Source of the DNA: a virus
Lineage: Duplodnaviria > Heunggongvirae > Uroviricota > Caudoviricetes
IMG/VR virus record: IMGVR_UViG_2651869782_000025
Length of the DNA stretch: 64,000 nt
Strand: one strand, 5' to 3'
Both the position numbers and the translations under genes were made by a program. How positions within the stretch are numbered: position 1 is the stretch's first letter; each line of letters opens with the position of its first letter. Below are positions 1,252 to 6,418 of the stretch, piece by piece. The notes beneath the pieces are model-generated. The model did not search any database and was not told the DNA's origin. It saw nothing but the letters and a program-made list of their open reading frames with translations.

Positions 1252-1268
1252 AAATGCTCTAATAAATT
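1252..1268 (+). promoter_or_regulatory. C1-repressor operator-like 17-mer upstream of immI (Op51-like)
   Basis: AATGCTCTAATAAATTT, one mismatch to the P1 C1 operator consensus ATTGCTCTAATAAATTT. Confidence 0.55.
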
Positions 1269-1449
1269 TGTATTTTTAAGTCGCAAATGCTATCTTTTCG
1301 CATCATATTGACCTTTTAATCGTTCAGGCTTATAGTTCCGCCGTCGTAGCAAATTCTGCGACCGGGTTTAGCAGCCTGAATGTTAGTGCGGACAACCGCA
1401 GATATCCGATATTGCGGTATTTTTGTGTCCGTAAAACCGCGTTACGCCC

Positions 1450-1570
1450 AAATTATGGTGGGGCGTGATGGGGAGGCTTCGGCCTGCTGGTTTCACTAAC
1501 GCCAGTCTGCTAACCCCGTCACGTCCTGCCACCTGTTTAGCAGCGGGTAGCAGGTTGTTAAACCTGTTAG
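1450..1570 (+). ncRNA. c4: Probable c4 antisense-RNA region of immI (boundaries approximate)
   Basis: Non-coding GC-rich stretch directly upstream of icd. It contains GGGGAGG, complementary to CCTCCCC just upstream of the ant start (about 1772-1778), plus internal CACTAAC/GTTAGTG complementarity, consistent with the P1 c4 mechanism. Confidence 0.4.
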
Positions 1571-2922: not shown

Positions 2923-2939
2923 TTTGCTCTAATAAATTT
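2923..2939 (+). promoter_or_regulatory. C1 operator-like 17-mer upstream of kilA-repL (Op53-like)
   Basis: TTTGCTCTAATAAATTT, one mismatch to consensus, about 70 bp upstream of the kilA start. Confidence 0.6.
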
Positions 2940-3838: not shown

Positions 3839-4681
3839 ATGCTGGCTAAAGTCACTTTCCTGAGCTGTATAACGATGAGCGATTTTACTTTTTCTGGCTA
3901 TGAATTGGCCTGCTTTGTAACACACTCCGGTCTATCCCGTAGCGCCGGGCATATCCTGTCGCAATGTGCAAATCTCGCGGCAACAACCAGTGAATACTTC
4001 ATTCACAAGCCCCACCGCCTGATCGCGGCAGAAACTGGTTATAGCCAATCAACCGTCGTTCGTGCATTCCGTGAAGCTGTAAACAAAGGAATTCTGTCTG
4101 TAGAGATTGTTATCGGCGATCACCGTGAACGTCGCGCTAACCTGTACCGGTTTACACCATCCTTTTTGGCCTTCGCACAACAAGCCAAAAATGCGCTGAT
4201 TGAAAGCAAATTAAAGATCTCTTCAGCGGCAACCAAGGTTAAAGCTGTTCTCGCTAAGACATTGGCTTTATTTAATTTTTTATCCACACCCCCATGTCAA
4301 AATGATACCCCCTCCCCCTGTCAGGATGACGTGGCAATAAAGAATAAGAAGTCACAAATTAAAAAAACAAAAAGATCAGTTTCCGGCGGTGCCGGAACGA
4401 CCAGACTCAAAAAATTGACTTCATGGATCGCTGAGGCAAAAGCAAAGGCTGACAATCTGCGGTTATCCAAAAAACGCGCTGAAAAACATGAGTTCAAGCA
4501 GAAAGTAGAGGCGGCAGCGCGGAAATATGCTTACCTGAAGAACAAGCGTTCTCCTGATATTGGCGGGGTATCAAACTTCGATAATCTGCCGCATTGCATG
4601 ACGGTAAACGAAGCTATGGATATGGTCCTATCTACCAGAAAAGAAAAGGAATTTTATATTCCAACTGGTTTTCGCGGATGA
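3839..4681 (+). CDS. repL: RepL lytic replication initiator (oriL expected inside the gene)
   Basis: 280-aa ORF following kilA; P1 RepL is about 281 aa in the same arrangement. Confidence 0.7.
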   Translation: MLAKVTFLSCITMSDFTFSGYELACFVTHSGLSRSAGHILSQCANLAATTSEYFIHKPHRLIAAETGYSQSTVVRAFREAVNKGILSVEIVIGDHRERRANLYRFTPSFLAFAQQAKNALIESKLKISSAATKVKAVLAKTLALFNFLSTPPCQNDTPSPCQDDVAIKNKKSQIKKTKRSVSGGAGTTRLKKLTSWIAEAKAKADNLRLSKKRAEKHEFKQKVEAAARKYAYLKNKRSPDIGGVSNFDNLPHCMTVNEAMDMVLSTRKEKEFYIPTGFRG

Positions 4682-4776
4682 TCGCGAATGATAGAATCTT
4701 TACGTGTATTTAACGCTCAATACACACTATTTTGTCACCAGTATTATTTTTAACGTTTTTATAGGTAACTTTTTCC

Positions 4777-5292
4777 ATGAAAAAAGTAGTTTTAACGGCC
4801 CTTCTGGCATGTGCCTTGGGGGTTGCTGGGACTGCCTCCGCATATCAGCACACACTCTCCTTAGACTTTGCCCAAGGAAGCGCAACGGTTAAAGGCGGAG
4901 ATATAAAAGATCCAAAAGGCGTGAATATTAAATATCGCTACGAAATGGATTCTACGTGGGGTGGATTAGCTTCGGTCACTTACGAAAAGTCAAACACAAA
5001 CCTATGGAATGCCGCCAAAGCCAAGGTTGAGTATGCCTCATTTACTTTTGGTCCGTCATACAGATTCAATGAATTAATGAGTGCATACGGCTTGGTGGGT
5101 TTAAGCCATGCGGATGCAACAGCAAAACTGAATGGACAGTCATATGCTGGTTTTGGAACCGATTTTGCTTATGGACTTGGGCTTCAATTTAACCCATCTC
5201 CGCAGTTTGCTGTTGACCTTTCGTATGAACGCTCTAAACCAGGTGATCTAAGCAATAGCATTTGGATGCTTGGTGTCGGTTACCGATTTTAA
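4777..5292 (+). CDS. Ail/Lom/OmpX/PagC/Rck-family 8-strand outer-membrane beta-barrel protein
   Basis: 171 aa with signal peptide MKKVVLTALLACALGVAGTASA and C-terminal ...GVGYRF ending in Phe, the family hallmark; alternating aromatic/hydrophobic strands. Confidence 0.75.
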   Translation: MKKVVLTALLACALGVAGTASAYQHTLSLDFAQGSATVKGGDIKDPKGVNIKYRYEMDSTWGGLASVTYEKSNTNLWNAAKAKVEYASFTFGPSYRFNELMSAYGLVGLSHADATAKLNGQSYAGFGTDFAYGLGLQFNPSPQFAVDLSYERSKPGDLSNSIWMLGVGYRF

Positions 5293-5301
5293 CTATTTAG
5301 T

Positions 5302-5335
5302 CCCTCTGCCCTACGCAGAGGGATTTATACTTTGC
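5302..5335 (+). terminator. Rho-independent terminator candidate after the OMP gene
   Basis: Hairpin CCCTCTGC-CCTAC-GCAGAGGG followed by a T-rich tract. Confidence 0.45.
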
Positions 5336-5339
5336 TCTG

Positions 5340-5603
5340 GTGATATTCGTTATGTTCATTGAGACTAACGCTATGACTATCCTGGTATCTATTCCCATCT
5401 ATATACTAATTGGTGGACTGATATACGCATTAAGTCGATATATTTTGCGAGCTAATGCAGAAATGGCCTGGTGGGATCGTTTTTGGATAATGATTTTTTT
5501 TGGCATATTCTGGCCATTAGGGATCATGTTTGCTGCAACATTTCTTCTGATGTGGATATTCACCCTTCCAGGTGATTTCTATAGAAAAAAAGCCAGACAT
5601 TGA
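5340..5603 (+). CDS. Small hydrophobic membrane protein (hypothetical)
   Basis: 87-aa ORF, strongly AT-rich, two or three predicted TM helices; the true start may be the internal Met (MTILVS...). Confidence 0.35.
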   Translation: MIFVMFIETNAMTILVSIPIYILIGGLIYALSRYILRANAEMAWWDRFWIMIFFGIFWPLGIMFAATFLLMWIFTLPGDFYRKKARH

Positions 5604-5785
5604 TACACCCGCTGCGGTGTGCTTGAGGCTATCTGCTTCAGGCATTCCCCGAAAAGCAGATAGAAGAAAGCCCCAGTAAACATTATGCGTCCCGCACAAC
5701 GCTTAACATTAACCGGGGCCATACCTATGCTTAGCGTACTTAGATTAATCCTCTCCTCTGTCAAGGAGCAAGGAATTTTTTACTG

Positions 5786-6418
5786 CTATGCCGCCTTTCC
5801 AGTTATGGATTCTGCGACAAGAACAACACCATGCTTACTTCGATCCGGATGTTCACTCCATATCTCGGATTCAGGAATACTTTTCCCGTCATAGCAAACA
5901 CGTTCGCCGTCAAACGGGTAATACTGAGCGGCATCGGTGTCGAGGATAAACACTTTTAGCTCGGAAGAGCGACGGGCGATATGTTGCCAAAGAGCTTTTC
6001 CACCTTCGTATTGCTCATTATCACTGAGCAAAACAACACCAGCTTTTGAGGCTACGGTTTCGTAAACAAAAGTAGCTAAACCGACATCCCGGACAGTTCC
6101 ATCAACCACGATACCTTCAATCTGGGCAACATCGCTATCCTCCCAGAACTTCCTTACCAGTACGCCTTCAAGCTGCGGGCGACGTTGAAGTTCAAGAGTA
6201 GCGACAACCTTATGCCGCATATCACCATCGATAACAGAAGGCGCAGCCTCTATTACAGCTGCAAATGGGGTTTTGGAATCCCATATAACCTGGTAAAGCA
6301 CACCCTGGATGGTAACTCCGTCCAGGATCGAAAATCGACGAGCGACAGTACCCGGGGAGTACGACATTGGAATCACAGCCATTTTAGAGTCCCCCTTTAA
6401 CAGTACAGGCACAAACAT
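5786..6418 (-). CDS. Hypothetical phage late protein
   Basis: 210-aa ORF co-oriented with the late structural block; likely start at the internal MAVIPMSY. Confidence 0.45.
   Translation of the reverse strand: MFVPVLLKGDSKMAVIPMSYSPGTVARRFSILDGVTIQGVLYQVIWDSKTPFAAVIEAAPSVIDGDMRHKVVATLELQRRPQLEGVLVRKFWEDSDVAQIEGIVVDGTVRDVGLATFVYETVASKAGVVLLSDNEQYEGGKALWQHIARRSSELKVFILDTDAAQYYPFDGERVCYDGKSIPESEIWSEHPDRSKHGVVLVAESITGKAA

Follow-up and report, generated by a model that had tools for sequence, protein, structure and literature searches.

Genomic setting of the OMP gene

The 64,000-nt stretch of viral DNA analysed here (IMG/VR record IMGVR_UViG_2651869782_000025; the whole stretch is called the window) comes from a P1-like phage-plasmid (Punavirus), and carries directly after the lytic replication gene repL a gene for a predicted outer-membrane protein (OMP) of the Ail/Lom family. 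The OMP gene is preceded by icd-ant, kilA and repL, together with the C1 repressor operators of these genes and the C4 antisense RNA, and to its 3' side, on the opposite strand, follow bplB, pmgG, gp21 and the sheath gene. In P1 itself the interval after repL holds the C1 operator Op55, rlfA, rlfB and pmgF; an earlier, sequence-only reading of the window had placed the OMP gene where P1 carries its rlf genes, and this placement is correct. The slot between repL and bplB is one of eight highly variable, low-GC regions in P1-like phage-plasmids (PMC9603915); that paper reports the variability of the slot without describing the OMP. Here, rlfA, rlfB and pmgF are replaced by the OMP gene, a small membrane open reading frame (ORF), a sok leader without hok, and a gene of phrog_7522. 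The coordinates of all features are collected in Table 1.

Table 1. Features at and around the OMP gene, in window coordinates
Feature	Position	Strand	Remarks
Ail/Lom-family OMP precursor, 171 aa	4777-5292	+	ATG start; ends in …GVGYRF and a stop codon; predicted mature protein 149 aa
Predicted Sec signal peptide of the OMP	4777-4842	+	residues 1-22
repL, lytic replication initiator	3839-4681	+	98.4-98.9% identity to repL of P1 and other P1-like elements up to 4615
Mosaic block, 876 bp	4616-5491		blastn junctions 4615/4616 and 5491/5492 against OMP-less elements
Candidate extended -10, TGaTAGAAT	4689-4697	+	seen by eye; kept in all 10 compared copies (TGaTAAACT in L008 and L013)
Intrinsic-terminator-like hairpin	5299-5325	+	11-bp stem, 5-nt loop, then ATTTATACTTTG; free energy -18.5 kcal/mol
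Small hydrophobic ORF	5340-5603	+	probable start ATG 5352, giving 83 aa; alternative starts GTG 5340 and ATG 5373; two hydrophobic segments; phrog_3772
C1 repressor operator, equivalent of P1 Op53/OrepL	2923-2939	+	one mismatch to ATTGCTCTAATAAATTT; 70 nt upstream of kilA
C1 operator preceding c4	1253-1269		
C4 antisense RNA	1330-1536	+	RF01695, 70 bits
Antisense kilA promoter	3064-3036	-	
sok element	5617-5790	+	directly 3' of the small ORF; Rfam RF01794 'sok antitoxin (CssrC)', 69.6 bits (gathering cut-off 59)
210-aa ORF	5786-6418	-	198 aa in the public annotation; phrog_7522

Family assignment and predicted structure of the OMP

The protein matches the Pfam models OMP_b-brl (E-value 2e-24) and Ail_Lom (PF06316; 81 bits against a cut-off of 23) and, over its full length, the PHROGs family phrog_108, 'Lom outer membrane protein' (E-value 2.6e-47). 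Judged by these profile searches, the match to the family is far beyond chance. When solved structures were searched by sequence, Yersinia pestis Ail came first (3qra; E-value 1.6e-29), ahead of E. coli OmpX (about 1e-20), with lambda Lom in third place (4e-13). The predicted signal peptide has the N-terminus MKKVVLTALLACALGVAGTASA in front of the YQ of the mature protein and ends in an AXA site (…TASA/YQ). An AlphaFold2 model built with 34 homologues (mean predicted local distance difference test, pLDDT, 87) begins with a helix, the signal peptide, over residues 2-17, drops in pLDDT at residues 18-21 and continues with eight long strands; a Foldseek search with the model gave TM-scores of 0.86-0.90 to Ail (3qra/3qrc) and of 0.89 to OmpX (1qj9). 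An eight-stranded antiparallel beta-barrel is confidently predicted from the model. The description of the gene product in the sequence-only reading, as an eight-stranded OMP of 171 aa with the C-terminus GVGYRF, is upheld by the ORF, the Pfam matches and this model. A lipoprotein reading of the 'LLAC' stretch in the signal peptide was ruled out, as Cys12 is replaced by Val in three alleles.

The sequence motifs are those of the family. The second strand contains VNIKYRYE (residues 49-56), which matches the family motif N-[IL]-K-Y-R-Y-E; in the family alignment K52 is invariant, and N50, Y53, R54, Y55 and E56 are nearly so. The C-terminal beta-signal is GVGYRF, and an end in GYRF is common to nearly all aligned family members. 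The extracellular loops are of mixed type, with loops 1 and 3 (L1, L3) being Ail-like and loop 2 (L2) having the length found in OmpX, and all are far shorter than in Rck or Lom.

Within the family, the OMP scored below the cut-offs of both equivalog models of NCBIfam that were considered, those for OmpX (NF006917; 116.4 bits, cut-off 176) and for Rck (NF011777; 79.4 bits, cut-off 258). Its identity is 42-48% to Ail-group proteins of Arsenophonus and Photorhabdus, 44-46% to a 178-aa OMP of lambdoid E. coli and Salmonella prophages, 42% to Y. pestis Ail, 34-39% to Rck, 35-39% to OmpX and 28-36% to Lom. In bootstrapped neighbour-joining trees it falls outside the OmpX clade (100% support) and the Lom clade (99%). 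Because it scores under both equivalog cut-offs, has low identity to the named proteins and lies outside the OmpX and Lom clades, the OMP belongs, by sequence comparison, to the Ail/Lom family, yet is neither OmpX nor Rck nor Lom. Its nearest relatives on these identities are the Ail proteins of Arsenophonus and Photorhabdus and the morons of lambdoid prophages.

The same data bear on whether the gene is a recent capture of a host housekeeping ompX; a clustering with housekeeping OmpX had been named as something that would overturn the sequence-only reading. The precursor has exactly the length of E. coli OmpX (171 aa) and the OmpX equivalog is its best NCBIfam match, as a captured ompX would have it; the protein nevertheless does not cluster with OmpX, being some 60 bits short of the cut-off (116 against 176), 35-39% identical and excluded from the OmpX clade with full bootstrap support, and no chromosomal relative above 42% identity was found among species-representative genomes. 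We regard a captured ompX, or its companion alternative of a decaying, unexpressed passenger gene (taken up with the selection data below), as hardly credible.

Compared with named systems, the best sequence and structure matches are to Ail of Y. pestis and Y. enterocolitica and to the Ail group of Photorhabdus and Arsenophonus (41-48% identity), with which the OMP has in common the eight-stranded barrel, the NIKYRYE and GYRF motifs, similar lengths of L1 and L3 and its grouping in the tree; the Ail-group genes are chromosomal, whereas the OMP gene is borne on a phage-plasmid, and L2 of the OMP is four residues shorter. Lambda Lom and the Lom-like proteins of Shiga-toxin (Stx) and lambdoid phages are likewise eight-stranded OMPs encoded by prophage morons, with the same Pfam and PHROG 108 assignments, but they are 199-206 aa long with much longer L2 and L3, and lom lies downstream of the tail gene J, whereas the OMP gene follows the lytic replication gene of a myovirus-type phage-plasmid. 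Rck (of the virulence plasmid pSLT) and PagC of Salmonella, the archetypes of complement resistance, belong to the same family, and Rck too is encoded on a mobile replicon. L2 and L3 of Rck are 8-10 residues longer than those of the OMP, so that the cell-binding region in loop 3 of Rck has no counterpart here, and the srg/SdiA context of Rck is not present around the OMP gene. OmpX of E. coli and Enterobacter shares the precursor length, the short L2 and nearly the mature length (148 aa against 149), but is encoded at the chromosomal ompX locus and not on a mobile element.

The 178-aa Ail-like OMP mentioned above is encoded by a moron, seen among the IMG/VR records L039-L044 (e.g. L040, 4001-4537), between the genes for the tail assembly chaperone and the tape measure. 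Its carriers are lambdoid siphovirus prophages of E. coli and Salmonella, closely related phage records are without the gene, and its insertion site differs from that of lambda lom.

Mosaic structure and origin of the block

The OMP gene lies within a block of foreign type whose limits were obtained by comparison with four OMP-less P1-like elements (RCS47, 673R5, pLH10-b-1-B and pMB9880_2). The DNA is 98-99% identical to these elements up to 4615 and again from 5492, and the block in between opens with an allele of the repL 3' end and runs across the intergenic region, the OMP gene and the terminator into the small ORF, of which it takes in the N-terminal half. The left junction falls within repL, the last ca. 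22 codons of which (from 4616) are diverged yet homologous (…MDMVLSTRKEKEFYIPTGFRG versus …LNAVLAKNKDNEQWGIPAGFRG). The right junction falls within the small ORF, whose C-terminal half (from 5492) is identical to an 81-aa backbone protein and whose N-terminal half is of the cassette type. As both junctions lie inside diverged homologous alleles, the comparison shows the block to have been exchanged with a more distantly related P1-like element through homologous recombination. A transposon-type insertion was ruled out: the junctions show neither insertion sequences (IS) nor repeats, and on either side it is a backbone gene that is present as a diverged homologous allele. A search for the donor of the OMP gene covered phages, plasmids, species-representative genomes, IMG/VR and an index of 5.8 billion proteins, and brought up no relative in the range from 50% to 93% identity.

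The GC content is 44.6% for the OMP gene (38% at third codon positions), 37.5% for the small ORF, 41.3% for the block and 46.9% for the window. The label of AT-rich cargo, given in the sequence-only reading, thus suits the intergenic DNA and the small ORF, whereas the bias of the OMP gene itself is slight.

Distribution and existing annotation

The OMP is encoded with at least 93% identity in 36 of the 72,556 plasmids in PLSDB, 24 of which are from Escherichia albertii (mostly from wild birds), seven from E. coli and five from Salmonella; further copies were found in six IMG/VR contigs, in phage SJ46 and, among 5,426 complete E. coli genomes, in nine. Avian clusters of E. albertii show an enrichment of P1-like elements (bioRxiv 10.1101/2025.09.12.675607). 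The OMP is at most 48% identical to anything outside its own lineage, and forms, on the sequences compared, a discrete lineage within the family. The gene is missing from P1, P7, RCS47, 673R5 and about 470 further P1-like E. coli plasmids that match in the shared backbone only; it is thus present or absent among close relatives, between conserved genes, as is the case for a moron. The carrier plasmids differ in their replicon typings (IncY, p0111-type and 'IncHI1B'), so that the block is one that circulates among P1-like backbones.

Public records already annotate the OMP gene correctly, and it is a well-delimited further member of a known family in a known slot and a known architecture. RefSeq names the product 'Ail/Lom family outer membrane beta-barrel protein' (WP_025210472.1 and others), and in the RefSeq record of SJ46 it is the 'Lom outer membrane protein'. 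No discussion of the gene was found in the literature searched, which included the SJ46 paper and surveys of P1-like elements.

Several labels around the gene are in conflict. The GenBank record of SJ46 (KU760857.1) calls the OMP a 'replication protein', and the note of the coding sequence in RefSeq reads 'RepL'; RepL is in turn termed a 'MarR family transcriptional regulator' or a 'helix-turn-helix domain-containing protein' by the Prokaryotic Genome Annotation Pipeline (PGAP). Most OMP-bearing plasmids have no annotation for the small ORF, which OMP-less ones do have (WP_023351467.1).

A further copy lies in the chromosome record of an E. coli strain of sequence type 2747 (L015; NZ_CP007393.1, 2219961-2233064), where a whole P1-like gene block of icd-ant, kilA, repL, the OMP gene and tail genes adjoins a truncated lambda-like gpJ pseudogene, with the ant gene enlarged. 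The record shows a P1-like element that has integrated, or else a join made in assembly.

Intactness and selection

The OMP gene is complete in all 11 copies compared, which represent nine alleles. These differ at 40 nucleotide positions, 24 of which are third codon positions, and the ratio of non-synonymous to synonymous substitution rates (dN/dS) is typically 0.1-0.3. The substitutions are conservative and spread over the barrel, none of the 15 variable residues lies outside the signal peptide, strands and periplasmic turns, and the tips of the extracellular loops are invariant; diversifying selection on exposed loops was not seen, in a test that is weak with nine alleles.

In one copy (L009), an IS-flanked fragment of P1 resides on an IncF conjugative plasmid and has decayed: repL is cut down to its last 75 codons, bplB is truncated, and the 210-aa gene is broken by a frameshift and a stop, but the OMP gene and the small ORF are complete. 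Since dN/dS is about 0.1-0.3 and the gene is still complete in this decayed fragment, the OMP gene is, on the evidence of its alleles, functional and under purifying selection. The single case of L009 further points to a selection on the OMP that is independent of phage functions. A dead passenger, the second half of the alternative that we hold to be hardly credible, would not account for 11 complete copies out of 11 at a dN/dS well below 1.

Expression signals

A candidate extended -10 element precedes the gene (Table 1), and a local promoter is suggested by the decayed fragment L009, which keeps a complete OMP gene without the upstream kilA promoter. A canonical sigma-70 promoter was considered and rejected, as none was returned by the scan and the other -10-like hexamers seen by eye are without a usable -35 or a TG element. 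The terminator that had been read after the OMP gene from its letters is borne out as a predicted hairpin (Table 1); across the diverged copies its stem is nearly invariant, with one outer-stem position differing in two copies, and its loop is variable.

The operator upstream of kilA has the same spacing to its gene as in P1. None of the 15 operator-like sites of the window lies in the block 4616-5491, which rules out a control of the OMP gene itself by C1 in the way that Op55 precedes rlfA in P1. No convincing terminator on the + strand was found between this operator and the start of the OMP gene at 4777, so that read-through from the C1-controlled kilA-repL operon into the OMP gene is plausible after induction. 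We infer that the OMP is expressed in the lysogen.

Two further kinds of control were tried. PhoP boxes, as known for pagC and Photorhabdus ail1, match 63 times in the window (up to three mismatches) against 72 expected by chance, and the three matches near the gene are too weak to carry meaning, so that control by PhoP was rejected; a structured 5' untranslated region or riboswitch was rejected on a z-score of -0.12 and the lack of an Rfam match there.

At the repL stop codon (4678-4697) an indel of 10 nt (ATGATCGCGA) is flanked by the short direct repeats GGATGAT/GAATGAT. These 10 nt are deleted in copies L008 and L013, where the extended -10-like motif overlaps the repL stop codon.

Proposed function

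The OMP gene is an ordinary kind of prophage accessory gene and its product a routine member of its family. By analogy with its relatives, we lean, with some reserve, towards a moron-type accessory gene that adds a protein to the cell surface and confers protection from complement, altered adhesion, or both, that is, lysogenic conversion. The protein would be exported by the Sec system, inserted by the beta-barrel assembly machinery (BAM) as an eight-stranded barrel of the Ail branch, and would appear as a new protein on the surface of the lysogen. The gene would have arrived with the block of ca. 0.9 kb by homologous recombination with a diverged P1-like relative, and would most likely be expressed from a weak constitutive promoter of its own (the extended -10) and end at its own terminator, with extra transcription through read-through from the C1-repressed kilA-repL operon after induction. 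Lysogenic conversion would benefit the carrier bacterium, and the carriers are mainly avian E. albertii, with E. coli and Salmonella in addition; insertion in the outer membrane of the lysogen and a benefit at the level of the host are what we infer. Serum resistance and adhesion are proposed on the grounds of family membership and of analogy with Ail-group proteins. Complement resistance, and in some cases adhesion, is conferred by Ail-group proteins, PagC and Rck. Ail of Y. pestis, Ail2 of Photorhabdus and PagC conferred serum resistance when expressed in E. coli, that by Ail2 and PagC being intermediate (PMC4198210).

Several observations weigh against this proposal. In the same study, Ail1 of Photorhabdus and Ail of P. 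asymbiotica conferred weak serum resistance only, and none of the proteins gave cell association (PMC4198210). The extracellular loops of the OMP are short, with L2 of OmpX length and L3 being 8-18 residues shorter than in Rck and Lom, and it is to these loops that the virulence functions of Ail and Rck map. The position of the OMP inside the Ail group is on a long branch with modest bootstrap support (40-55%). A strict two-hexamer scan for sigma-70 sites finds no promoter upstream of the gene, and its Shine-Dalgarno sequence is weak (AGG, 11 nt upstream). Finally, other eight-stranded OMPs and overexpressed Lom have been reported to block phage adsorption (bioRxiv 10.1101/2025.02.28.640651).

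The last point leads to a second explanation, which we consider possible but rather unlikely: the OMP could be a factor of defence or in the service of the phage, which blocks adsorption by shielding or altering receptors such as the lipopolysaccharide (LPS) core or porins. This could amount to superinfection exclusion in the lysogen or, after read-through upon induction, could prevent the wasteful adsorption of progeny to cells already infected. Functional metagenomic selections yielded OmpX- and OmpA-like eight-stranded OMPs that block the adsorption of T7 and lambda-vir, and overexpressed lambda Lom defends strongly against lambda-vir, which OmpX does not; a role late in infection is suggested by the authors (bioRxiv 10.1101/2025.02.28.640651). 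Lom at its native level in a lysogen, however, does not exclude lambda-vir (bioRxiv 10.1101/2025.02.28.640651), and the OMP is only about 30% identical to Lom. An adsorption block would fit the position of the OMP gene directly behind a C1-controlled lytic operon with no terminator in between, as well as the repeated occurrence of this branch on phages (the lambdoid morons, at 44-46% identity). It would fit also the loop tips, which are invariant in the nine alleles, unlike what is expected for an antigen under immune pressure. The complete OMP gene amid decayed phage genes, in the non-phage context of the IncF plasmid, rather favours a benefit to the host, though anti-phage defence would also be such a benefit. 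No match to the PADLOC defence models was obtained for the OMP, nor for the small ORF or the 210-aa protein, with the library of 2023, which is without the adsorption-blocking OMPs described in 2025.

A more specific form of this explanation, to which we give slightly less credence still, is that the OMP is an adsorption blocker and not of the virulence type, being low in the lysogen and boosted by read-through from kilA-repL, and that it shields lysogens from heterologous phages, keeps P1 progeny from being lost to infected cells, or both. If true, the anti-adsorption role proposed for Lom would extend to an Ail-branch protein in a myovirus-type phage-plasmid with an LPS receptor.

Thirdly, the OMP might be a general factor of envelope fitness, e.g. 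for lipid homeostasis, stress tolerance or biofilm formation, with no specific ligand of host or phage, which we consider improbable. Ail is reported to be needed for the integrity of the outer membrane of Y. pestis at 37 °C (PMC8508112); the OmpX-like size and short loops of the OMP and the conservative substitutions among its alleles, scattered over the barrel, are in line with such a role as well. The hosts already own a chromosomal ompX, however, and it is not obvious why a redundant OMP on a mobile element should be kept by purifying selection. Our ranking accordingly places lysogenic conversion by interaction with the host first, the blocking of adsorption second, an envelope role third, and a captured ompX or dead gene last.

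Monitoring of P1-like phage-plasmids, which occur commonly in E. coli, E. albertii and Salmonella, is directed mainly at resistance genes. With a surface protein that is under purifying selection, the OMP cassette represents a second class of cargo, one that is undiscussed in the surveys. Should complement resistance, adhesion or phage exclusion prove true, the cassette would amount to a transmissible fitness trait with an apparent concentration in avian E. albertii, and would provide a data point on what phage-borne Ail/Lom proteins are for.

Small membrane ORF and neighbouring elements

A small, AT-rich membrane protein had also been read after the OMP gene, as part of the cargo. The ORF exists, and is hydrophobic and low in GC, but it is not cargo. 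In OMP-less P1-like plasmids repL is directly followed by the gene of an 81-aa homologue, which agrees with the ORF product in all of its C-terminal 30 residues and has a diverged N-terminal half with the same hydropathy pattern; by this comparison, the ORF belongs to the backbone of most P1-like plasmids. Every copy of it that was compared is complete, that in the decayed fragment L009 too. A second break between haplotypes lies at its 3' end (5587-5660; L001 and L008-L011), with the alternative C-termini …YRKKARH and …YRNRVKR. Two versions of the following ca. 70 nt go with these C-termini, and their distribution is independent of the OMP allele, which means that the slot has undergone more recombination.

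P1 and the window share a conserved immunity region, ImmI, which includes the C4 antisense RNA, the a1/b1 target element of C4 (RF03163), the C1 operators that precede c4 and kilA, and the antisense kilA promoter (Table 1).

The sok element 3' of the small ORF is not followed by an ORF for a hok toxin. The same element scores higher in an OMP-less plasmid (L007; 94.7 bits) and in pRHBSTW-00312_2 (L012; 115.7 bits), where it leads into an annotated, intact hokD; the homology of the window to the latter plasmid stops near 5775, where the convergent 210-aa gene ends. The element appears to be what is left of a type I toxin-antitoxin locus, a leader without hok that is kept in hundreds of P1-like plasmids.

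The 210-aa ORF, for which PGAP annotates 198 aa, belongs to phrog_7522 and had no match in Pfam, NCBIfam or PADLOC. Most P1-like plasmids have the phrog_7522 gene where P1 has pmgF; hokD is found there instead in L012, and a pseudogene in L009.

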